Shown piece after piece: positions 12,616-53,568 of a stretch of 64,000 bases of DNA. The translations under genes and the position numbers were made by a program. A model generated the notes under the pieces. That model searched no databases and had not been told where the DNA came from. It saw only the letters and a program-made list of their open reading frames with translations. The DNA is from a virus. The number at the start of each line of letters is the position of its first letter. Position 1 is the stretch's first letter. The stretch covers positions 52,378 to 116,377 of IMG/VR virus record IMGVR_UViG_3300024239_000355; one strand, given 5' to 3'.

Positions 12616-14307
12616 TTACATACGCTCCGGGATAGTAATACCCATAATGTCACACACGGTTTCCAACTGCTCCAACACCATTTCCACCATGGTGTAACGG
12701 GATGCCTCGCTGTCGCTCCCCACCACAGTGTGCTTGTGGTAGAACTCGTTAAAGGCAGCCGCGACTTTGTAGGCGTGTTCTGCCAGCCAGTGCGGTTCCC
12801 GCCGGTCATGTGCCACCATCAGCACATCCGGGGCACGCGCCAGTTCCAGCGCCACTGCCCGTTCTTCCGGGTTGGTGATTACGAAGTCGCCAGGGTCAAC
12901 CTCGGATTTGCGGAGGATGCTTTTGCATCGCACTGCCGTGTAAAGGATATATGGTCCTGTACGCCCTTCGAACGAGAGGAAACGGTCAAGGTCGAACGCA
13001 TAGTCAGTGCGCCGGTCATTTCGAAGGTCTGCATACTTGATTGCCGCCAGGGCGACATGTCGGGCAATTTCGTCCTTCTCGTTGTCGGAGAAATCGCTGA
13101 CGATGCGGCTCTTGGCACGGGCTTCTGCATCATCGAGCAACGACGTGAGGCTGACTAAATCCCCATCACGGGTCTTGAATGGCTTTCCATCGGGTCCGTT
13201 AATGGTTCCGAAACCGATATGCTCATACGAAAACTCGTATCCGGCTTTTTCCCCCGCGTAGCCCATGTGAGTGAGCAACTGAGTGGTTGCCGCGAACACC
13301 TGTTTGAAGTGCAGGGATTGGCGCTGATCCACCACGTACAGCACATCCATGACCGGGTAGTTGGTCGGATCAGCAGTAACACGTGAAATCAGGGTTGCCA
13401 CATCGGTGGTGCCATACAAAGCGGCACCGTCCGATTTCTGAAGGATCAGCGGCGGCATATCATCGCCCACCGGGATGACCAACGCCCCTTCGGATTCGTG
13501 CGCTAGATGATTGTACAGGGCATAGTTGATGATCGTGGTGCATTCAACCTGGGAATCGCTTTCGCCGTTCCATAGGTCAAAATTCACGCCCATGCGGTCG
13601 AAAATCACCCGAACATCATTTACGGAGATACGACGAAATGCTCTCCAAAGAGCAAATTCCGGGTCGTTCCCGTTTTGAAGGTTGGAAGTGCGAATTCGCG
13701 CGGCTTCCATCGCCAACGGATCAGTCTTACACCGTACCGACGCCGCACGATAAATGTCCAACAAATCATCGGCGGTAAGATTGGTGTGGTCACGGTTGGT
13801 ATGGATGATTTCATCAATCACCATGCCCATTTGAAGTCCCCAGTCGCCCAGGTGGATATCCGACGTGACGTTGTACCCGAGGAACCGGAAAAGCCGCTGT
13901 AAGCAGTCTCCGATGATGGCACTGCGCAGATGACCCACGTGCATGGTCTTGGCGACGTTTGGTCCCCCAAAATCGATCAACACGTTCTTGGTTGAGAAAT
14001 CCGGCAGTTCTAAACAGCCATCCACGGCGGTAAGCGTTTCTAGTAAGGAATCGGGCACGCGAATGTTGATGAAACCGGGACCGGTGACGGAAGCATCATA
14101 CCCAAGGGCAACTAGCTTCTCGACCACCCCCCTGGCAATTTCAGGGGCACTCGCACCGCTCTGTTTCGCCAGCGGCATCGCACCATTGCACTGATAGTCG
14201 GCCAATTCCGGGCGCCCGGATACAACAACCTTCGCGAAGGTCGGATCGTAGCCAAGCTCGGAGAAAACCCCAGCGAGGGTCGTGTGCAAGGTTGCTTGAA
14301 GAGTCAT
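12616..14307 (-). CDS. argS: Arginyl-tRNA synthetase
   Basis: ADYQCNGAM, GPGFINI, DFGGPNVAKTMHVGHLRSAIIGD, HLGDWGLQMG, LQKSDGAALY, KPFKTRDG, FEGRTGPYILY motifs. Confidence 0.95.
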   Translation of the reverse strand: MTLQATLHTTLAGVFSELGYDPTFAKVVVSGRPELADYQCNGAMPLAKQSGASAPEIARGVVEKLVALGYDASVTGPGFINIRVPDSLLETLTAVDGCLELPDFSTKNVLIDFGGPNVAKTMHVGHLRSAIIGDCLQRLFRFLGYNVTSDIHLGDWGLQMGMVIDEIIHTNRDHTNLTADDLLDIYRAASVRCKTDPLAMEAARIRTSNLQNGNDPEFALWRAFRRISVNDVRVIFDRMGVNFDLWNGESDSQVECTTIINYALYNHLAHESEGALVIPVGDDMPPLILQKSDGAALYGTTDVATLISRVTADPTNYPVMDVLYVVDQRQSLHFKQVFAATTQLLTHMGYAGEKAGYEFSYEHIGFGTINGPDGKPFKTRDGDLVSLTSLLDDAEARAKSRIVSDFSDNEKDEIARHVALAAIKYADLRNDRRTDYAFDLDRFLSFEGRTGPYILYTAVRCKSILRKSEVDPGDFVITNPEERAVALELARAPDVLMVAHDRREPHWLAEHAYKVAAAFNEFYHKHTVVGSDSEASRYTMVEMVLEQLETVCDIMGITIPERM

Positions 14308-14599
14308 CGGGTGCCCAACGTCGTTTGAAAAGTTCAAGATCATGTAATGACGAAAAACGAATATATCGCATCATCTTGTAATTTTCAACGACTTCTATTT
14401 CTATCCCGTGCGCCCGGCACCAATCACGTATTTCCTGATTGAACGGTTCGGCATCTTCGTCCTCTTGGTCCATATATGGCTCTTCGTCATACTCAAGGAG
14501 CCATTTGTCATTTTCGTCCAAGAGCCATACTTCAAATGGATCACAATGTTCGAAGCCTTTGAAGCCGTAATCAGCAAGCGTTCTATAGACCTTATGCAC
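14141..14599 (-). CDS. Hypothetical protein (3' end overlaps argS)
   Basis: The N-terminal ~100 aa look like a phage protein; the frame stays open about 165 nt into argS. Confidence 0.5.
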   Translation of the reverse strand: MHKVYRTLADYGFKGFEHCDPFEVWLLDENDKWLLEYDEEPYMDQEDEDAEPFNQEIRDWCRAHGIEIEVVENYKMMRYIRFSSLHDLELFKRRWAPDDSSSNLAHDPRWGFLRAWLRSDLREGCCIRAPGIGRLSVQWCDAAGETERCECP

Positions 14600-18076: not shown

Positions 18077-19078
18077 TTAAGCCGCTTCGTCGGCTTCTTC
18101 TGGGTTCTTGACCACGAGAGAATACAGAACGCCAGTACCCAAGATGAAGGCGATAATCGACAGGCTGATCACGTTCGGGATGTGGACCCCGAAGGCGCTA
18201 CCGATCAGTTTCGCGGCGACTACTACCAACAGAACCATCACCGCTTTATCGAGCGCCCAGAGCTTGTTCTGAGCGGCAACCAGCAGGAAGTACAGCGACC
18301 GCAGACCAGCAGCAGCCCACAGCGACGAGGTGATCATCAGGTACGGATCGCGGACCACGGCAACGATGACTGGCATCGAGTCGAACGCGAAGATCACGTC
18401 GCAGATTTCGATGCAGATCAGGCACAGGAACAGCGGGGTGACACCGTTCGAGAAGAACTTGCCCGCCGAGATATCGGGATTGGTCTTCCAGAACCGCTTG
18501 ACCATGTTCACCGACCAGTGGTTGGTGTAGTCCACGTCCTCGTCGTCATCGCCGTCCTTCCACATCTTCCAGACGGTCCAGAGGATGATCAAAGCGAAGA
18601 TGATCAGCACATAGTCGGACAGGTTGGCGACTGCGGCACCGGCACCCAGGAACAGTACGCGGAACACAATGGCGCCGAGAATGCCCCAGTAGAGGATTTT
18701 GTGCTGGAAATGCTGACGTTCGCCCGCGACCAAACCGAATGACTTGAAGATCAGGTAGAACGCGAACAAGTTGTCCAGCGCCAGTGCCTTTTCAAGGACA
18801 TAGCCGGTAGTGAACAGGCTGGCAGACTCGGCACCTTTTGACCACCATACGTAACCAGCGAACATCATCGAGCAAATCACCCAGATGATTGACCACTTGA
18901 GAGCGTCACCCATGGAAATGGGTTCATTTGACTTGTGGGAAGTCAAATCAATATAGATGGCAAGAAGGAACGGAATAAGGAACGCCGCCGCGTCCATTAA
19001 GGAAATGCCAGAATAGGCAGCGATCATCTGATCGAACATTGATCTTGTCTCCGGGTCAGGGTGGAACCGAAATTCCAC
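18077..19078 (-). CDS. terC: TerC family integral membrane protein
   Basis: EKALALDNLFAF, QHKILYWGILGAIVFR, DVIFAFDSMP motifs. Confidence 0.9.
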   Translation of the reverse strand: MEFRFHPDPETRSMFDQMIAAYSGISLMDAAAFLIPFLLAIYIDLTSHKSNEPISMGDALKWSIIWVICSMMFAGYVWWSKGAESASLFTTGYVLEKALALDNLFAFYLIFKSFGLVAGERQHFQHKILYWGILGAIVFRVLFLGAGAAVANLSDYVLIIFALIILWTVWKMWKDGDDDEDVDYTNHWSVNMVKRFWKTNPDISAGKFFSNGVTPLFLCLICIEICDVIFAFDSMPVIVAVVRDPYLMITSSLWAAAGLRSLYFLLVAAQNKLWALDKAVMVLLVVVAAKLIGSAFGVHIPNVISLSIIAFILGTGVLYSLVVKNPEEADEAA

Positions 19079-19093
19079 CCTGCCTGTTTGGCT

Positions 19094-19744
19094 TTAGCCG
19101 TTGAGGTATTCGCGACCGATGGTCTGAACGGTTTCTTCCAGACGGCGATCACGGGTTGCCTGACCGATGGTCTGGAACTTCCAAACACCATCACGCTTGT
19201 ACAGACGACCCATGACCATGCTTACGTGATTGGCGAACGACGGGTCGTGGGCGACGTTGTACTTACCGACCACGGCGACATCCGCGTCGATGATCGGGCG
19301 CGGCGCACCCTCATAAATGCGTATGGTCGCATAGGGAATGGTGGCGAAGTCGTGACCCTGGAACGAATTCAGGAAGAACACGACATGAGCCGCTTCACCG
19401 GGTGCCTTGGACAGATCAACGGAAATGGTTTCGTTATCCGTGCCATCATCACCATCGGTATCACCGACGCGATCATCACCCGAATGCTTGATCCAACCGC
19501 CTCGGGCGGTAAGATTGCGGAACGACACCGTTTCGATCAGGCGACCGGTGGCGTCGAACACTGCACATGAAGCATCGAGATCAACCGCCTCGGTGCTACC
19601 ACCCATGCCGAAGATACCCTTCTTCTGGATGGCGCCCCAGTTCAAACCAAGGCACACGTTGGTAAGCGACGTACCGTCAGCCTTGGACAGGTTGATTTTC
19701 TGCCCTTTGGACAGGTCGATAGGCGAAGTCGAAGTCGAAGTCAT
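19094..19744 (-). CDS. terD: TerD/TerZ family protein
   Basis: LSKGQKINLSK, VDLDASC, HSGDD..GD...D...DNE.I.VDL, WKFQTIG. Confidence 0.85.
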   Translation of the reverse strand: MTSTSTSPIDLSKGQKINLSKADGTSLTNVCLGLNWGAIQKKGIFGMGGSTEAVDLDASCAVFDATGRLIETVSFRNLTARGGWIKHSGDDRVGDTDGDDGTDNETISVDLSKAPGEAAHVVFFLNSFQGHDFATIPYATIRIYEGAPRPIIDADVAVVGKYNVAHDPSFANHVSMVMGRLYKRDGVWKFQTIGQATRDRRLEETVQTIGREYLNG

Positions 19745-19756
19745 TGGCGGAACCCC

Positions 19757-20374
19757 TTACTCGTACCATTTGCTGATGATGTTGGCCAGTCCGTTCGGAG
19801 CTTTGCCGTGACCTTCACCCAAACCGGTAAAACGCCAGTCGCCATCCTTGCGATACAGGCGACCCAATTCAGCGGCAGTTACCGCCGAAGCATCTTCATC
19901 CAGTTCGAAGGTGTAAAGGGCTTCACCATTGGTGTTGTTGTAAATGGTGATCTTCGGCTTGGCGACCTGTCCGAACAGGATCGGAGCGCAGTTCGGATTG
20001 GTTTCGACCTCGGGATTGTACGAGGTGCAGACGATGAGAAGCGCCTGGGCATCCGAGGCAACTTCATCCAGCTTGATGATGATGGTTTCGTTGTCGGCTT
20101 CACCATCACCGCCAAACTTGGCATCACCCTTATGTTCGATACCGGGCAGCGACGGGTTGGTGTAATAGCACAGACCACGCGGCGTGTTGGGTTCGCCACC
20201 CTTGACCATCTTGTCGTCGGCTCCGAGCAGAACGACCGAGGCATCCAAGTCTGCGGTCTGACCGGGCTTAAGAAGCCACTTCAAACCAATACGAATTTCC
20301 TTGAGTCCGGGCTGTGCCTTGGACAGGTTGATGCGCTCGCCCTTGGACAGGTTGATAGGTGCTGCTGACGCCAT
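19757..20374 (-). CDS. terD: TerD family protein
   Basis: INLSKGERINLSK, DLDASV, HKGDA..GGDG..DNETI, ELGRLYRKDGDWRF. Confidence 0.85.
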   Translation of the reverse strand: MASAAPINLSKGERINLSKAQPGLKEIRIGLKWLLKPGQTADLDASVVLLGADDKMVKGGEPNTPRGLCYYTNPSLPGIEHKGDAKFGGDGEADNETIIIKLDEVASDAQALLIVCTSYNPEVETNPNCAPILFGQVAKPKITIYNNTNGEALYTFELDEDASAVTAAELGRLYRKDGDWRFTGLGEGHGKAPNGLANIISKWYE

Positions 20375-20847
20375 GGTAGGTTCCCCGTAGTGGCATATTG
20401 CGAAAGAGTGAAGAGAAACAACCATACGTCTTCACCCATGTCAAATGTTTTTGAATATGTGTTCTTCGGGGATGTTTGGAGATTTTACAAAATCAAAAAT
20501 TTTACGTTTACATCCAAAAATTTTGGGTGGTTTCGTTCATTGAAACCACCCAATGCTAGGACGATAGAAAGCCATTGTAATGATTCGTTGTGCCCGCTTG
20601 CGTTAATTTGATGCACCTATACGGAAGGCTTTTGGGACGTATCCCAGGTGATGCCATCCACCAGATTTGTGACAAATAGACACTGATAAAATAGCCATCA
20701 CATACCATATATATACTGTATTTATCCTCCCTTTGTCCGGATAACACCAAAGTTAAGTCTGGTTTTTGAATTTTTTCCGACGATTAAATAGCCCTAGCGA
20801 AATGACAACTACGATGATACACTCCACTACACAATGGAGGTAATGTC

Positions 20848-21691: not shown

Positions 21692-21722
21692 AAAACGGGG
21701 CGCCTTGCGACGCCCCGTTTAT
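21692..21722 (-). terminator. Rho-independent terminator after tmRNA
   Basis: AAACGGGGCG/CGCCCCGTTT stem flanked by A/T tracts. Confidence 0.7.
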
Positions 21723-21724
21723 TG

Positions 21725-22027
21725 GTTATTCTGTTGCCAGGGAACCAACCCCCACCTAACCGTTTGAGGGTTAGGGATTTACGGTTACCCGCGCTGCTAC
21801 GCAGCGAGAGCGACAACCTCGCCGTTATCATTGGCAGTTGTTGTGTTTGGTCCGTGGACATTAGCCCCGGCGGTACCATACCGGCCAACTCCTTCGACCT
21901 TTTCTTGCGGCTCGATCCTAGTTCACCCCCATGCCACCCCGTGATAACTTCGGGAGAGATTTGGTGGAGGTGGGCGGTACTGCCCCGCCGTGACCTACAA
22001 GCTATTACGTCGCTATCATCGCTGACA
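21725..22027 (-). ncRNA. ssrA: Circularly permuted (two-piece) tmRNA
   Basis: Minus strand: acceptor piece GCTTGTAG...GGCGGGGCAGTACCGCCCACCTCCACCA (3' end at 21962), ~31-nt spacer, coding piece starting GGGGGTGAACTAGGATCGA (21930). Acceptor stem GGGGGTG/CACCTCC has G3.U70 and A73. Tag frame 21835-21797 = ANDNGEVVALAA*. Outer ends approximate. Promoter TTGACA(22062)-N17-TATAAA overlaps TATAAATA. Confidence 0.93.
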
Positions 22028-22348
22028 GGGATATTTATATCGGTTTGTGTGTTGGGTGTCAATAACGATCTTTTTACCACGACCAACTTTCTTTGATTTT
22101 TCGACCGTGCAGAATTCCCGTAGCATCGCTTCATCGTCGCGATTGGAAATCTGCATGTGACATGACCAATCACCCCCTTGATGATGTAGGGGTGCTTCAT
22201 ATGGGTGGCACAAAAAACCGTGAGATCGTTTGTTCGTTTTCGTGAACCCATCTGGACCCCAGTGCGGTCCCTCGCTTTCGTCAATATCCAGCTTCTTATT
22301 GACTGAATGGACCACGAAGTCGGCAATCATTCCCGGTTCAAGATTCAA
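22016..22348 (-). CDS. Hypothetical protein
   Basis: ORF; its 3' end contains the tmRNA promoter. Confidence 0.5.
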   Translation of the reverse strand: MNLEPGMIADFVVHSVNKKLDIDESEGPHWGPDGFTKTNKRSHGFLCHPYEAPLHHQGGDWSCHMQISNRDDEAMLREFCTVEKSKKVGRGKKIVIDTQHTNRYKYPCQR

Positions 22349-22372: not shown

Positions 22373-23023
22373 CTAGTTCTCTCGTTTTCGACAGACCCAA
22401 ATTGATGTTGGTCCGTCCACACGTTCTTCGCAGGCAAAATACGGGGTCAAAAGCCCAAGGTACTCTTCTCGGGTGATCCAGCGGAAAACCGTGGTGTGCG
22501 GAACCATTCCGGTGGCGCACTGCACATGGTGAACCATCCCATCCACCAACTGTGAAACTTCAACATAGTCCAGCCCGGTATCTGCTAGATGGTACTGTTT
22601 GACCACCGGTACGGATGGCATATTGTTGAATGTGTTGAACACGAACAGCCCATCGGTATCTATTACCTTGGATACCATGCGAGCGGTGGTAGCGGTCAGC
22701 CAGTAGTTTACTGCCTGCTGACACGCTACTACATCCCACGACTGTCCAAACCCAATGGCGTTTGGTAATGCTTCTTCAACCGTTTGATTGACTACCCAGA
22801 TGCCCATGTCTTTAGGGAAATGAGGGACCATTCGCGTCTCAGCTTCCAGATACACGACTTTAGCCCCCATGCTGGCGGCATAGGTGGATAAACGCCCACC
22901 CCCGCCGCACAAATCAAGGAGCCGTTTTCCTTTTAAGTCGATACCATGAAACAAATCCGCCACCGGACGCTTGAAGTAACGCGCGTATAGGGTCGCATAG
23001 GTGTCGTGGTCTGGATACCGCAT
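22373..23023 (-). CDS. Class I SAM-dependent methyltransferase
   Basis: Motif I LLDLCGGGG; WDVVACQQAVNY; GLFVFNTF; TGATG coupling to the upstream gene. Confidence 0.8.
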   Translation of the reverse strand: MRYPDHDTYATLYARYFKRPVADLFHGIDLKGKRLLDLCGGGGRLSTYAASMGAKVVYLEAETRMVPHFPKDMGIWVVNQTVEEALPNAIGFGQSWDVVACQQAVNYWLTATTARMVSKVIDTDGLFVFNTFNNMPSVPVVKQYHLADTGLDYVEVSQLVDGMVHHVQCATGMVPHTTVFRWITREEYLGLLTPYFACEERVDGPTSIWVCRKREN

Positions 23024-24195
23024 CACACCATATACTCCGACATTGGATCGGTGCCCTTGAAGAGCAGAAAACATCCATGACCAGCGATGTTGAAGCTCCC
23101 CTTCACTTCACGGATCGAATCGCGCACCGTTCCTGGGGGTGCATATGGGAGGGTCGGCAACCCATCAATTTGTTTATGTAGATGCACGATGACATTTGCC
23201 TCGGTCGTGCGGAACAAGTGATCGAGTAACGGCGCGTTCAGGGTTGCCTTATTACCGATGACGTTTACACAGCGGTTATCGTGGTCAATTCCAACCACGG
23301 TCGTAAACTCGTCCAATTCGTTCTTCCCGCGCGCCGTGGTCAGCATCGATTTGAATTGCCCACCCCACCAGCGCACTGCTACCGTACCAAACACATACCC
23401 TTCCGGTGATGTGGGGAACTCGGCACGGAAATGATCTATGAAACGACGCATAGTATTTCCATATCCGGTATTCATGGAAGCCGACACATACGAATCCGCA
23501 TCCGCATACGGGTACGACGACTCATGGTTCGTGTGGTAATAGCCATCCCGCACACAGTCCATGACGAATTCCACGATGCCGTCTTTGTGCATCGGATGAA
23601 CGCCGCGTTCCTTGGTCACGATATATTTCTGGGTCAAATCGTCGGTCTGGTTCGCGAACACCGCCGTTGCCTTAGACCAGAGCAAGGTTTCGTAGGCAGC
23701 GTGAACCAACTCATCATGGCTCACCCCAGCCAGCAGCTTAAACCCAAACAAGTGGGTTTTCGGCGCGACTTCTTTCACCATATCGATGATGCGGGGCGCA
23801 ATGGTGAAGTTGATCGGGATGATGTCCCCGACCTTATAATTATGGCTGGGGAATTTTCCCTTGATTGGTTCGGCTGGGATTAGGTTGGCGACCGCCGCCC
23901 CTAGGATAACCGCATCCATAGTCGGCGCGAGTTCGAGAACCTTATCACGGTAATCGAACAAACCATCATGATGCACGATGGTCAGATTACGCCCCAATGG
24001 TTGCGGTTCCTTCTGATTGCGCGCAGTCAAGTATACAATCTCGACTGCCGCTGGATCACCGACATAGGCACCGCGATTCCGGTCGCAAAACTGCTCGGCA
24101 AGTTCTGCCATGAGTCCGCCGCGAAAGCGGTTGGTGATGATTTTTACCGCATCCAGATAGGCGTGGACGGGACCACCGGTAATCAAAATTCTCAT
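23023..24195 (-). CDS. CoaB-like (phosphopantothenate-cysteine ligase fold) domain fused to class II aldolase/adducin-like domain
   Basis: ILITGGPVHAYLDAVKIITNRFRGG (cf. CoaB VLITAGPT.E..D.VR.I.N.SSG), ILGAAVAN, GFKLL, VFAN; C-terminal VIVHLH...APPGT...GHG. Confidence 0.7.
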   Translation of the reverse strand: MRILITGGPVHAYLDAVKIITNRFRGGLMAELAEQFCDRNRGAYVGDPAAVEIVYLTARNQKEPQPLGRNLTIVHHDGLFDYRDKVLELAPTMDAVILGAAVANLIPAEPIKGKFPSHNYKVGDIIPINFTIAPRIIDMVKEVAPKTHLFGFKLLAGVSHDELVHAAYETLLWSKATAVFANQTDDLTQKYIVTKERGVHPMHKDGIVEFVMDCVRDGYYHTNHESSYPYADADSYVSASMNTGYGNTMRRFIDHFRAEFPTSPEGYVFGTVAVRWWGGQFKSMLTTARGKNELDEFTTVVGIDHDNRCVNVIGNKATLNAPLLDHLFRTTEANVIVHLHKQIDGLPTLPYAPPGTVRDSIREVKGSFNIAGHGCFLLFKGTDPMSEYMV

Positions 24196-24554
24196 GGCAT
24201 TATCCTTGTTGAACAGACCGGTACGATGTGCGAACACCGTTTGCGCCCGCCATCGCAATAGCGGACGATCTTGCACGGTTTGTGCTTGAGTATCCACTTG
24301 ATGTCCGGGTCTTTGGTATTGTACGCCCACTTTATGTTGATAGGAAGACCACGTTCCAAGGAACAAATCCGCTGCCAGATTTGTTCCCGACGTTTCTTAC
24401 AGGTTCCCGCGTTCCGGTGAAGCCATGCGTTCGCCTTGTGCGGCGGACGATTCTCTTTCAACCATTGAAGCTGTCGTGGGGTCTTGGCTTTAAACACGAT
24501 CATTCTTCGAGTTTTGCGCGAACTGCCACCGGGTCTAGCCCAAGAAGGCGACAC
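24192..24554 (-). CDS. Hypothetical basic protein
   Basis: ORF with ATGA overlap to the CoaB-like gene; true start may be internal. Confidence 0.5.
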   Translation of the reverse strand: MSPSWARPGGSSRKTRRMIVFKAKTPRQLQWLKENRPPHKANAWLHRNAGTCKKRREQIWQRICSLERGLPINIKWAYNTKDPDIKWILKHKPCKIVRYCDGGRKRCSHIVPVCSTRIMP

Positions 24555-25559: not shown

Positions 25560-27782
25560 TCAGTCGCCAACAACATTCGCAACCTCGATGGGTTCGAACT
25601 CGTTGGCGGCATTCTGTCGGACGAATACGTAAGCGGGTCCGCCGTTAATCATCACTTCGGCATCCGAATACACCACCGGAATGGTGCCCGGTTTACCATG
25701 GACGAATACATCCGCCACGGACGGCAGCGCCGACAGGTACTCCAAGAAAGCCGGAAGCTTCTCTTGCAGATGACCGCCATTCTCAGCCGCCGAACGGATT
25801 GAACCATACAGATTGGCGTCGATGTACACAGCCTTACGCTCCATCACGTCGATGTACGCGATGTACTTGGTCAAATTGGCACCCTTGATCGGGAACACCA
25901 TTTGGGCACGCGACGGCTCATAGAGCGCCCCAGCCTCGGCATTAACGCCCCATTGAATGGTGGCGAGAACGTCTTCAGCATCATCGAACTTGATGCTGCT
26001 GTAGCTCAGAATGTTCCAAACCGCGTAGCGGACGCCTTGCTTCGCCAGTTTATCGAGGTACAAATCGATCATCTGACAACCGCGACCTTCGATTTCCTTG
26101 CTGGTGGTCGGATCACCCGAGAAAATCGCCGCTGTGTATTCGGTGATTTCGAGACGACGGTTCCAGTCCTGCCCACCATGAACAGGGAAACGTTCTTCCG
26201 ACCAGCAACAGGCACCTACCGGAACCCACGACTCATCAAAGAAATTCACCCCGTTGTCGAACCAAATATTTCGCCCAGTAGTGGAAACTTGCTTCCAATA
26301 ACTGGCAACACGGACAAAGTTCATTTCCGCTGGAATTTCAAAGACGGTGCCGCGACCATACGGCGCAAGCTTCTGATCGTTGGTTTGAAGCTTCACGCGA
26401 TCCGCATTGCAATCCACATTGAAACCAGCCGGATACGACTCGTCCAGACGCGAGGCGATGACACGCGAAATAGCTGCACGGAGCTTGCGCAGATGATCGA
26501 AATCGATCTTCACTTTACTGTTGGTACGAATCTGCGCACGGGTCCAGTTACCTTTGGGCGCCGCGATCAGCGTGGTGCGGTTGTTGATGGTGGACAGATA
26601 GCCGTCCAGCTTCAACAACTGCATGGTGGACAACTTCGGAACCACGGTCACAAAGGCATCCACTGCCGCGCCACCAAACACCGCGTAGGTCTTGTGCAGA
26701 CGACGCATAAATTCACCCGGACGGGTCCGCAGCGACTCCAGAACCACAGGGTCACCCATGGCGATGCCGTACTCGACCATCCCCGCAAAAGTCTTGTGAA
26801 CACCACGATACAGGATATCATAGGCTTCCGACACGCGCGGAAAGTTGTAGTCGCCCGGACGCAGGGAACGCAGCAGCTTCTTCCACACCTCGGGACGCAG
26901 ATAAAAATCATCCACCAGATGCACGCAGTTCTCCAACAGCGCCAGCAGGAACTTGCGCTTGGAACGGTTGAACTTCGCGAACTTGGTGCCGTACTGGAAC
27001 GGCGGCACAGTCGGCTTCACCCGACGACCCCAGCCACGCACGGGCGCGGACAGAATGCGCTTGCACAGCGCACGATGGGCTTCGGTAATCTTGCTGGTAC
27101 GCAGGGATACGTCACCACCAGACAATCCAACTGCCAAACGCAGTACGTCAGTCGCAGTGGACATCTTCACCGTCCGACCTCCGTCAACCGCCTGTACTGC
27201 GAGCAGAATGGCGTTTTCCTTGAAACCGAACGCATCTACGTCAATGGATGGCATCAGATAGCCATACAGATAGAACGCATGGTCCTTCTGCGAATCAGTC
27301 CACCGCGTGGGCAGCTTACACAGATTCTCAAAGATAATGTGCGGAGTGTCGTCGGTGCCGAGCGCCAACACCTTCAGTGAAACCTTTTCCTTCAGTTCCG
27401 GGCGCTGTTCTTCGGACTGAGTGAACCACTCATTGGGCGTACCAATGTACATAAGAATCTGGTTAAACCAGTAATGCGCCCGCGACATTTCAAGAACTTC
27501 CTTCGGGAAATTCTTGTAAACGACGAAATCCGCCATGTTGCGGTCGGCACCGGTCACGTTTTTGACCGCAGGCTCGATCTGCTTCCAGAACTCACCAAGT
27601 TCCTTGGTGGTTAGGGAAACGAGAGCGCGAACGGTATCCGGCGCTGGGACAAATCCATAGTAGGCGAGGTTGGACAGTACCGTCCCCAGGTAAATCTCCT
27701 TCATTTCCGGCTTTGCTTCGGTCGCCCGCGATTTCGGAACCGGAAGAAAGCCGTTGGAGATCAGGAGAATGCAGTTGTCCAT
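25560..27782 (-). CDS. Large TerD-related phage protein
   Basis: Long GC3-biased ORF; RPGEFMRRL, APKGNW, PYGRGT motifs; C-terminal FSGDPTT...G..MIDLYL...GVRYAVWNI segment resembles the TerD fold. Confidence 0.55.
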   Translation of the reverse strand: MDNCILLISNGFLPVPKSRATEAKPEMKEIYLGTVLSNLAYYGFVPAPDTVRALVSLTTKELGEFWKQIEPAVKNVTGADRNMADFVVYKNFPKEVLEMSRAHYWFNQILMYIGTPNEWFTQSEEQRPELKEKVSLKVLALGTDDTPHIIFENLCKLPTRWTDSQKDHAFYLYGYLMPSIDVDAFGFKENAILLAVQAVDGGRTVKMSTATDVLRLAVGLSGGDVSLRTSKITEAHRALCKRILSAPVRGWGRRVKPTVPPFQYGTKFAKFNRSKRKFLLALLENCVHLVDDFYLRPEVWKKLLRSLRPGDYNFPRVSEAYDILYRGVHKTFAGMVEYGIAMGDPVVLESLRTRPGEFMRRLHKTYAVFGGAAVDAFVTVVPKLSTMQLLKLDGYLSTINNRTTLIAAPKGNWTRAQIRTNSKVKIDFDHLRKLRAAISRVIASRLDESYPAGFNVDCNADRVKLQTNDQKLAPYGRGTVFEIPAEMNFVRVASYWKQVSTTGRNIWFDNGVNFFDESWVPVGACCWSEERFPVHGGQDWNRRLEITEYTAAIFSGDPTTSKEIEGRGCQMIDLYLDKLAKQGVRYAVWNILSYSSIKFDDAEDVLATIQWGVNAEAGALYEPSRAQMVFPIKGANLTKYIAYIDVMERKAVYIDANLYGSIRSAAENGGHLQEKLPAFLEYLSALPSVADVFVHGKPGTIPVVYSDAEVMINGGPAYVFVRQNAANEFEPIEVANVVGD

Positions 27783-27802
27783 AGGAACCCCCAAAAAGAA
27801 AT

Positions 27803-51592: not shown

Positions 51593-53568
51593 TACTTGCC
51601 CGCCTTCTTGACCTTCTTCGCTTCCTTAATGGTAGCCTTGTTGCCGATGAAAGCAGCCATGTCCTGTTCAAACTGCTTCTTGATACCCTGATAGGTTTCA
51701 TCAAGCTGTGCCAATTTGTCGTCGGCGAAGTCATCCAAACGACCATGCGCATCTGCATGTTCCTTGACGACGTTATGAACTTTCTTAAGAATAGTCAGCA
51801 CGGAAGTCTTTGCTTCACCAGACACTTTCTGGATATTCTCGACCAGGGCATCGAAATTCTTCAGACCGTTGTTTTCGTACCACTTACCAAAACCGTCAGC
51901 GGCAACCACATCATGCATGCGGCTGATCACCCACACTGCCTGCTCTTTGTCGTTCAAATCAAGGGATTGACCTTCGGTAAGAGTGCGTTGCATATCAAGG
52001 ACACGACCGACAAAAGCGGTGTAGCTTTCGAATACGGGGTTGCGCTTGTTCTCAACCATCTTAGCGATCCAACCGGCAACCACCTTCGGCTTTTCTGCGG
52101 TCTGCTCAGCAACCTTGGCAACGAACGCATTGTAGCGTTCCTTGTCAGCAAAGTTCTTCTTCGACTCTTCGAAATATTCCAACATTGTCGAACGGAAATC
52201 AGCTTCAGTCAGCCCCGCTGCCTGAATGGCTTCTGATAGTTGGAACGGCATCTTCAGACCGTTTAAGGCAACAACACGCAGAAGACGTTCCTTATTCTCG
52301 ATAATATACTTATCGAGAGTTTCTTCCATCTTACCAACGCTGATCAGTACATCATCCTTCACGGTTTCGCGAAGCTTCGTGTAGCTGGCAAGAACAGCCT
52401 TCCGAGCTTCGGTCAGGTTGTTCTTGCGGCGCTTCACACGGTATTCGAGGTCTTCACACACGGTGACAACCTCCGGAGGAAGGGTCAGATCAACCGCTTC
52501 ACCGAACTTTTTTTTTACGTCGAGCGGAGCCTTTTTCGGCAGAACACTTTCCTTTTTGGCACGCCCAACCGGCTCGGATTCTGGACCAGATGCCGCATCT
52601 GCACCACTGAACTCATCACCCAAGTCTTCCAATCCTTCGGTCGAGTCACCAGTGTCACCCAGGTCCAAATCATCACCTTCACCACCAGTGTCACCAGTGT
52701 CACCCAGGTCCAAATCATCACCTTCACCACCAGTATCAGCATCACCAGTGTCACCAAGGTTCAGATCATCACCACCCATATCGCCCATGTCAGCAGCCAT
52801 ATCGTTACCTAGCTCATCAACACCTTGACCATTCAAAGTCAAAATTTGATTATCAATACCTTCCTTAGCAGCCGATAGCGCATCAATCGCAGTCTGAAGT
52901 TTTTCTTTTACCCCGCCATCAAAACTCTTTGCCATATTGGGGTCGAACACACTAGTGATACGATCTTTCAGGTCCATCAAATCCTGAACCTGCATTTCTG
53001 CTAATTTAGCAAGCATTTTCTGAATTTGTTGAGTAAGATCACGAGCGGCGAGAATAACTTCTGCTTGCTCAAGGTCATTTTCCAACAGTACACTCAACTT
53101 AGTGACGGTGCTTTCCGTGACCTTCTTCACTGGAATCTTAGAAGACGCCAATTTATTTGCACGCTCTTGAAGAGCTTTTAACTTCTTCTCAAGCAAAGCC
53201 TTCTTTTCGAGCAATGCCTTATTATTCTTCACGGGCTTCATATGGGACTCCTCAACTGGCATCTTTGTGGTGGCGATAGCTACTGATTCGCGAACATCTT
53301 GACGACGACGCGGCTTACGTTTTGGCGCAATTTCACGCAAGAAAATACGAATAGCTTCCATAATAAGAATATTTTGCGTGTACGTTGGATCACGATGATA
53401 GTTATTAAACTGTGCTTCATTAATAATGCGATTTTTCTCAGCAACAGCAGCGGAGTATGCCTCACGCAGATCACGCTCGGATGACCGGTCGAAATCAATC
53501 TCAACACCATGTAACATCTTCAGCGTATGTGTAATTTGCTTGAGTTTACGATTAGACATACTCGCCAT
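51592..53568 (-). CDS. Large coiled-coil/acidic virion-morphogenesis-type protein
   Basis: LE.DLEQAEVILAA...; acidic repeats; TAAATA upstream at ~53598-53603. Confidence 0.6.
   Translation of the reverse strand: MASMSNRKLKQITHTLKMLHGVEIDFDRSSERDLREAYSAAVAEKNRIINEAQFNNYHRDPTYTQNILIMEAIRIFLREIAPKRKPRRRQDVRESVAIATTKMPVEESHMKPVKNNKALLEKKALLEKKLKALQERANKLASSKIPVKKVTESTVTKLSVLLENDLEQAEVILAARDLTQQIQKMLAKLAEMQVQDLMDLKDRITSVFDPNMAKSFDGGVKEKLQTAIDALSAAKEGIDNQILTLNGQGVDELGNDMAADMGDMGGDDLNLGDTGDADTGGEGDDLDLGDTGDTGGEGDDLDLGDTGDSTEGLEDLGDEFSGADAASGPESEPVGRAKKESVLPKKAPLDVKKKFGEAVDLTLPPEVVTVCEDLEYRVKRRKNNLTEARKAVLASYTKLRETVKDDVLISVGKMEETLDKYIIENKERLLRVVALNGLKMPFQLSEAIQAAGLTEADFRSTMLEYFEESKKNFADKERYNAFVAKVAEQTAEKPKVVAGWIAKMVENKRNPVFESYTAFVGRVLDMQRTLTEGQSLDLNDKEQAVWVISRMHDVVAADGFGKWYENNGLKNFDALVENIQKVSGEAKTSVLTILKKVHNVVKEHADAHGRLDDFADDKLAQLDETYQGIKKQFEQDMAAFIGNKATIKEAKKVKKAGK
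52646..52775 (-). repeat. In-frame 45-bp tandem repeat (GDDLDLGDTGDTGGE)
   Basis: TCACCAGTGTCACCCAGGTCCAAATCATCACCTTCACCACCAGT at 52646 and 52691, plus a third degenerate copy. Confidence 0.9.

Follow-up and report, generated by a model that had tools for sequence, protein, structure and literature searches.

A two-gene unit joining a CoaB-like/aldolase-fold fusion protein to a SAM methyltransferase in huge phages and CPR bacteria

Phosphopantothenate-cysteine ligase (PPCS, also CoaB) works within the coenzyme A (CoA) pathway, and in CoaBC (Dfp) proteins it shares a polypeptide with a second enzyme, the CoaC flavoprotein. Members of the class II aldolase superfamily (PF00596) carry three metal-binding histidines and an acidic residue; in FucA the latter is Glu73, which is both metal ligand and general base, and its counterpart in AraD is Asp76. 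In CoaB, an aspartate coordinates the cation on the triphosphate (Escherichia coli D279, Mycobacterium smegmatis D281, human D183; PMC7794376, PMC12985681), and the nucleotide motif II sequence N-P-D belongs to bacterial CoaB enzymes that use cytidine triphosphate (CTP) (PMC12985681). Here we describe a minus-strand gene pair in a 64,000-nucleotide stretch of viral DNA (the window; IMG/VR virus record IMGVR_UViG_3300024239_000355, positions 52,378 to 116,377) that encodes a fusion of a CoaB-like domain with a class II aldolase-fold domain, followed by a class I S-adenosylmethionine (SAM) methyltransferase. The source record is 195 kb long, with completeness estimated at 63%. We give somewhat better than even chances to the reading that the two genes encode a self-contained system of three activities, which stands outside CoA synthesis and produces or modifies a small metabolite, probably an anion (phosphorylated or carboxylated). 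Databases annotate the fusion as 'phosphopantothenate-cysteine ligase' or 'hypothetical', and full-text literature searches returned no paper describing it or its pairing with the methyltransferase. In window coordinates, the features of the pair are:

24195-23023, minus strand: fusion protein, 390 aa, with an N-terminal CoaB/PPCS-fold domain and a C-terminal class II aldolase-fold domain (translation, PF04127 match, AlphaFold2 model)
23587..24195, minus strand: CoaB-like domain, fusion residues 1-203 (hhalign to E. coli Dfp; HMMER alignments to 2gk4, 5int and 4qji)
23026..23586, minus strand: class II aldolase-fold domain, fusion residues 204-390 (domain model, Foldseek, VIA-align, hhalign)
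23023-22373, minus strand: class I SAM methyltransferase, 216 aa (weak Methyltransf_25/11/23 matches, family profile, linkage to the fusion)

Both start codons were set by alignment with homologues, which places the fusion start at MRILITGG (24195) and not at the TTG at 24366, and the methyltransferase start at MRYPD (23023) and not at 23074. An earlier note on this DNA, made by eye from the letters and a list of open reading frames (ORFs), gave coordinates that imply the longest frame in each case, and those starts are replaced here by the later ones. The fusion stop and the methyltransferase start overlap by one base in a TGATG at 23025-23021.

The pairing of the two genes is strongly conserved. 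At E<=1e-3 the fusion has 1006 homologues, of which the best 120 share 49-58% identity over 97-100% of the query. Among 25 related loci, drawn from 15 jumbo-phage contigs, one 522-kb assembly, and candidate phyla radiation (CPR) and other metagenome-assembled genomes, every one has the methyltransferase adjacent to the fusion or fused with it: directly downstream by tblastn in 23, found by blastp in L027, and present as a fused domain in L017. The earlier note had named co-conservation of the methyltransferase as a point on which its reading could fail, and the association was found throughout, sometimes as a single polypeptide. The unit recurs in huge phages and in ultra-small (CPR) bacteria, and copies from the two are tightly conserved at 50-60% identity, with about 65 invariant columns spread over both fusion domains. 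In a maximum-likelihood tree a shallow CPR clade is nested among more divergent phage sequences, and the window fusion groups weakly with that of a complete 203-kb phage. Its nearest phage copy lies in a 485-kb uncultured phage, and jumbo phage XacN1 is the sole nucleotide-level relative of the window among phage records.

A profile of the aldolase-like domain, searched against 1.84 billion representatives, retrieved only 390 clusters; in every full-length protein among them a DFP domain precedes the aldolase-like one. Two apparently free-standing aldolase-like proteins (P0177 and P0237) were rejected, their genes being cut by contig ends. Aldolase-methyltransferase fusions and triple forms of about 800 aa also occur. 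The divergent triple fusions (about 30% identity; P0123-P0128, about 800 aa; L031:8001-10388; L017:5989-7611) have a methyltransferase-like part in which SAM motif I is degraded and the strand-2/3 region is gone, and the forms of about 800 aa carry a further 300 or so residues that match no known family.

The identity of the N-terminal domain, called CoaB-like in the earlier note, was borne out by sequence and structure. Fusion residues 2-187 match PF04127 (DFP/CoaB, E 1.4e-13); PHROGs gave no match for the fusion. The full protein was modelled with AlphaFold2 from 36 homologues (predicted local distance difference test, pLDDT, 89; predicted template modelling score, pTM, 0.87), and Foldseek with the N-terminal half returned the CoaB structures 2gk4, 5int, 6th2 and 1u7z, the best being Streptococcus pneumoniae 2gk4 (E 1.7e-13, template modelling score 0.76), which is also the nearest by sequence (E 4.7e-19). 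Residues were mapped by hhalign to E. coli Dfp and by HMMER alignments to four solved CoaBs. The likeness to CoaB, in particular to the streptococcal type (2gk4, TIGR02114) and to CoaBC/Dfp, extends to the fold, the N-terminal glycine-rich loop and the D-x-V-[KR]-x-I-[TS]-N motif with its catalytic Asn: N22 corresponds to E. coli N210 and K114 to K289, both invariant, K18 occupies the R206 position, and the AAVA stretch is kept. Like CoaBC, the protein couples the ligase to a second domain, but the partner has an aldolase fold where CoaBC has the CoaC flavoprotein.

Other positions depart from CoaB. Where the four solved CoaBs have the cation-ligand Asp, the family has an invariant N104 (AAVAD to AAVAN). 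Nucleotide motif II reads A-P-R (residues 133-135; A-P-R-I-I) against the N-P-D(-I-V) of the CTP-using bacterial enzymes, the KxKK loop is replaced by K-G-K-F-P-S-H, and SSG by F-[KR]-G. Streptococcal CoaB also departs at motif II (T-P-K), so the motif II and KxKK deviations count as weaker evidence. The earlier note gave a CTP-activated acyl intermediate as established for CoaB; since motif II here is A-P-R and not N-P-D, CTP cannot be assumed as the nucleotide of this domain.

These comparisons bear on whether the domain is a genuine PPCS that serves or hijacks CoA synthesis, with the extra domains as regulatory or side activities. Streptococcal-type CoaB is indeed its nearest family by both sequence and fold, and it retains the equivalents of N210, K289 and R206 as well as the AAVA stretch. 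The top NCBIfam matches of the fusion are TIGR02114 and NF005231, but its scores fall 3- to 5-fold below the equivalog cut-offs (NF005231, 76 vs 265 bits; TIGR02114, 59 vs 217; TIGR00521, 45 vs 220), and an invariant Asn stands in for the metal-ligand Asp. The rest of the pathway was also sought. CoaC (PF02441) and CoaE (PF01121) were absent from all five CPR carrier genomes with positive controls, an absence that is not proof in incomplete genomes, and no other protein in these five genomes reached the DFP family cut-off. The 195-kb phage record (63% complete) likewise yielded no PF02441 match, in keeping with the earlier remark that the usual CoaC partner is missing. With CoaC and CoaE missing in the CPR carriers, and CoaC in the phage record, a phosphopantothenoylcysteine product would have no onward pathway; CoaB works within such a pathway, whereas none surrounds the unit. 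CoA synthesis would also leave unexplained the obligate fusion to an aldolase-like domain and the obligate pairing with a methyltransferase. We therefore regard a genuine PPCS as very unlikely. As the earlier note had proposed, the unit is not ordinary CoA synthesis; the pattern of sub-threshold scores, invariant Asn and missing CoaC and CoaE is consistent, though the genomes are incomplete.

The C-terminal half of the window fusion has no Pfam match of its own, and the aldolase/adducin-like call made by eye proved correct by other routes: PF00596 is matched by 15 of 36 fusion homologues, and the domain modelled alone (pLDDT 94) returned the class II aldolase superfamily in Foldseek (E 1.5e-6) and in VIA-align (Z 11.8, root-mean-square deviation 3.0 over 137 residues). 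The top 15 VIA-align rows all belong to this superfamily (Z 9-11.8), with the first unrelated fold at Z 3.3. Structural matches include FucA, YgbL, AraD, RhaD, MtnB/APIP, HMPD decarboxylase and pyruvic oxime dioxygenase. The domain profile gave no match to PDB sequences, so that the fold is recognised by structure and by profile-profile alignment only. Unlike the superfamily, the domain never stands alone; it is also shorter, with about 150 residues aligned and a helical piece peculiar to this family at its N terminus, and its family profile misses canonical aldolases.

Active-site residues were mapped by hhalign against a profile of five E. coli paralogues (FucA, AraD, SgbE, UlaF and YgbL; Prob 79%, E 1.6e-5), which supersedes a single-sequence alignment to FucA with a low-confidence register (Prob 10%). 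The 'VHLH...GHG' motif picked out in the earlier note as metal-binding corresponds to invariant H338, H340 and H373, which align to FucA H92, H94 and H155. The position of FucA E73 is taken by invariant N320 in the five-paralogue alignment and by a non-conserved Asp in the single-sequence one, and neither alignment gives a conserved carboxylate where the superfamily has its Glu73 or Asp76 base. At the FucA phosphate-binding positions N29, T43, G44, S71 and S72 only the Gly of the phosphate loop is kept, the others being T271, R289, T318 and L319 (moderate alignment confidence). A further cluster of invariant basic and polar residues comprises R289, K291, E293, K316, D359 and R362. A methionine-salvage function, considered for the MtnB-like fold, was rejected: no MtnA, MtnC, MtnD or MtnK partner was present in any locus examined, and the catalytic carboxylate is missing.

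The third activity, also anticipated in the earlier note, is a SAM methyltransferase with a class I Rossmann core and motif I, confirmed by profile matches. Motif I reads LDLCGGGGR, with D37 and G41 invariant, and an acidic residue lies in 'VDxE'; the motifs QQAVNYW, FNTF and VHHVQ are family-specific. Matches of the single protein to Methyltransf_25/11/23 are weak and below the Pfam gathering scores. The family profile matches many solved class I methyltransferases, best of all ToxA (8rdl, E 2.1e-11, positions 7-194 aligned), followed by the small-molecule enzymes phosphoethanolamine N-methyltransferase and UbiG; matches to RNA methyltransferases are marginal. ToxA-type enzymes (8rdl, 5jdz; Methyltransf_11/25) share the Rossmann core, the GxGxG motif I, the size (about 215-245 aa), an N-terminal Tyr-containing helix and a C-terminal beta-rich lid over a near full-length alignment. 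The match is of 47 bits only, however, and QQAVNYW, FNTF and VHHVQ are absent from ToxA. No named substrate class (ToxA, UbiG, RsmD or other) could be assigned, as all NCBIfam equivalogs score far below cut-off. A predicted complex of the fusion with the methyltransferase scored 0.10 against a mark of 0.32 and is counted neither for nor against an interaction.

Taken from the sequences, both fusion domains appear to keep the scaffold and most ligand-binding positions of their superfamilies, each with one classical catalytic carboxylate lost to Asn. Three known folds locked together, with both carboxylates replaced in this way, suggest chemistry outside the known range of these superfamilies. 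In the small-molecule system that we favour, the CoaB-like domain would first bind a nucleoside triphosphate and activate a carboxylate as an acyl-nucleotide, which would then be joined to an amine or thiol. Retention of the N210, K289 and R206 equivalents supports such a PPCS-like step, and the Asp-to-Asn change at the cation site together with the A-P-R motif II points to a different substrate or nucleotide. In a second step the His3-metal centre of the aldolase-fold domain may hold this same molecule or transform it by Lewis-acid chemistry; with an invariant Asn in place of the base, the classical enediolate step driven by Glu/Asp is not usable. In a third step the dedicated, small-molecule-type methyltransferase would methylate the product. 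We infer these steps as well as their order.

A small-molecule pathway is favoured by the obligate three-domain association, the type of methyltransferase, the near-neutral isoelectric points (median pI 7.3 for the fusion and 6.15 for the methyltransferase) and the lack of a recognisable nucleic-acid-binding domain in any of the three domains. The earlier note had proposed a modified nucleotide or small molecule; the latter part is upheld, and its suggestion of DNA or tRNA hypermodification is disfavoured by the methyltransferase type, the pI and the missing nucleic-acid-binding domain. Once the product is identified, a systematic mis-annotation could be corrected and the small metabolic repertoire of CPR bacteria extended by one reaction; a new auxiliary or counter-defence metabolite of phages might also come to light.

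A Pfam survey of the wider gene neighbourhood covered 132 ORFs beside the unit at 15 viral loci. NAPRTase turned up most often, at 4 loci, and NAD synthase next, at 3; ADP-ribosylglycohydrolase, RlaP, RNA ligase, Tpt1 and NAD-dependent DNA ligase (LigA) came after these. The CPR loci showed no recurrent neighbour of any kind. Among the 14 distinct unit-bearing viral records, 8 have a NAPRTase-family gene, which lies within 7 kb of the unit in 5 of the 8. These five cases come from two separate clades and show two gene arrangements. NAPRTase, Macro and NadE genes surround the unit in a sixth contig, and at one locus the unit is flanked by two ADP-ribosylglycohydrolases. The association with NAD/ADP-ribose and RNA-repair genes is real in some lineages and is not universal. 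It resembles the known phage NAD+ reconstitution or salvage sets (NadV/NAPRTase-family) in its proximity to such genes in two clades and in the Macro and ADP-ribosylglycohydrolase neighbours elsewhere, but the unit has no protein family in common with these sets, and the linkage is partial and absent both here and in CPR.

On these grounds the product might, in phages, contribute to or help protect the economy of NAD+/ADP-ribose and RNA repair, a role we consider possible but doubtful. A more specific version is a long shot: the unit would make a new methylated, amide-linked metabolite tied to pyridine-nucleotide/ADP-ribose metabolism; huge phages would employ it alongside their NAPRTase/NadE genes to sustain NAD+-dependent processes or blunt NAD+-depleting host immunity, and CPR bacteria would have taken over the unit to live on a host. 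If true, it would be a third, chemically new route beside the known phage NAD+ reconstitution pathways. The support for the anti-defence metabolite of the earlier note is contextual, from the NAD-salvage neighbours in some phages.

Several observations weigh against the proposed system and its link to NAD. Because related phages share synteny, the five adjacent NAPRTase cases amount to about two independent events. Neither NAPRTase nor NadE was found in this phage record (63% complete), and the NAD link is also absent from several complete phages (G006, G016 and G019) and from all CPR loci. Other neighbours point elsewhere: a Cys/Met pyridoxal-phosphate enzyme flanks the unit at one locus, two RNA ligase (PF09414) genes bracket it in a 221-kb phage contig (L036; 5787-6731 and 9081-10091), and the neighbourhood in the window is translation-related, with arginyl-tRNA synthetase (ArgRS), transfer-messenger RNA (tmRNA), elongation factor EF-Tu and RNase T. 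As to mechanism, the order of the three steps is a guess, and since the metal-site carboxylates are replaced by Asn (N104 and N320), one or both fusion domains may be binding modules and not catalysts.

Taken further, the last point would make one or both fusion domains dead scaffolds that present or sense a ligand such as a nucleotide or metal, with the methyltransferase as the real enzyme. The Asp-to-Asn and Glu-to-Asn changes at two canonical metal/base positions speak for this, and among the Foldseek matches are structures of the FucA mutants E73Q and E73S, which are the classical inactivating mutants. In some triple fusions it is instead motif I of the methyltransferase that is degraded, so that parts of the assembly can decay. 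Yet Asn is still able to ligate Mg2+ or Zn2+, and among the invariant columns over both domains are the His triad and numerous charged positions; their persistence across phages and CPR is typical of active sites under selection. We judge a dead scaffold improbable.

The translation-related neighbours bear on hypermodification of a nucleic acid (tRNA, tmRNA or phage DNA), in which the ligase would add an amino-acid-like group to a carboxylated base and the methyltransferase would cap it. Besides the translation genes around the unit here and the two RNA ligases that flank it in the other phage, RlaP, Tpt1 and RNA ligase recur nearby, tRNA genes lie close to the unit in four CPR loci, and the carriers, huge phages and CPR, are presumably rich in translation genes. 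There is no consistent link to tRNA or tmRNA, however, with neither near the unit in 21 of 26 loci. None of the three domains contains a known RNA- or DNA-binding domain, the pI is neutral to acidic, the best solved relatives of the methyltransferase act on small molecules, and no base-flipping or DNA-modification partner (glycosylase, kinase or transferase) is co-conserved. Hypermodification is accordingly unlikely in our view, and the small-molecule system remains the preferred reading.

The remaining features at the locus, all on the same strand as the pair, are:

24661-24500, minus strand: orfA, 53 aa, a small ORF coupled to orfB from upstream
24503-24192, minus strand: orfB, 103 aa, basic and Cys-rich, with an ATGA overlap at each end
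22066-21720, minus strand: permuted alphaproteobacterial-type tmRNA (ARAGORN; Rfam RF01849, 132.6 bits; RF04321, 96.6 bits)

The ATGA at 24503-24500 is common to orfA and orfB, and that at 24195-24192 to orfB and the fusion. The earlier note had described three ORFs, orfB, the fusion and the methyltransferase, joined by ATGA/TGATG overlaps. The overlaps are as described, but the membership of orfB does not hold: it has no homologue in Pfam, PHROGs, NCBIfam, phage tblastn, a 5.8-billion-protein search or the ESM Atlas, and in codon usage it scores neutrally (+0.006 per codon, vs +0.18 to +0.31 for sure genes), so the conserved unit is one of two genes and not three. The codon score of orfA is +0.17. 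Neither orfA nor orfB recurs in the related loci, nor do p263 and a 744-aa upstream gene. The orfB stretch (24196-24503, minus) folds better than shuffles (RNA fold z -2.35) and contains a perfect 13-bp hairpin with a 4-nt loop at 24360-24388; it may be a structured leader, instead of or besides a gene.

The tmRNA lies on the same strand about 300 nt downstream of the methyltransferase, which places the ORFs upstream of it as the earlier note had stated; it is a neighbour of the two-gene unit rather than a demonstrated part. Rfam gave no match over the operon apart from the tmRNA, and a scan for promoters and terminators gave counts no higher than in shuffles. Between the methyltransferase and the tmRNA lies a probably spurious ORF of 104-110 aa (22016-22348, minus): its codon score is negative (-0.21), and it crosses the promoter of the tmRNA (TTGACA-17-TATAAA, about 22062-22032). 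A GC-rich perfect palindrome with a 10-bp stem (21693-21720) sits at the 3' end of the tmRNA with T-runs on both strands and resembles a bidirectional terminator that would close off the minus-strand unit.

Further genes were noted around the unit. Besides the tmRNA, translation and stress genes are densely packed around the unit in the window: ArgRS, TerC with two TerD, EF-Tu and an RNase T-like exonuclease (12616-14343, 18077-20425, 28509-29747 and 33568-34443). In the phage clade with NAPRTase and NadE beside the unit, a conserved Cys-rich protein of 176-195 aa (YC..CC..PW...G.I..G.RKRV..DW...IH.W) with no Pfam match is encoded directly upstream of the fusion (L005:5395-5982, L011:5461-5991, L016:5448-5993 and L014:9672-10229). 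In L036, the unit has a nucleoside deoxyribosyltransferase-like gene 6 kb downstream. The 744-aa gene upstream of the unit in the window (25560-27794, minus) scores 171 bits against the MXAN_6230/SCO0854 RING-domain family NF041916, below the family cut-off, and matches phrog_33734 with E 1.5e-169.

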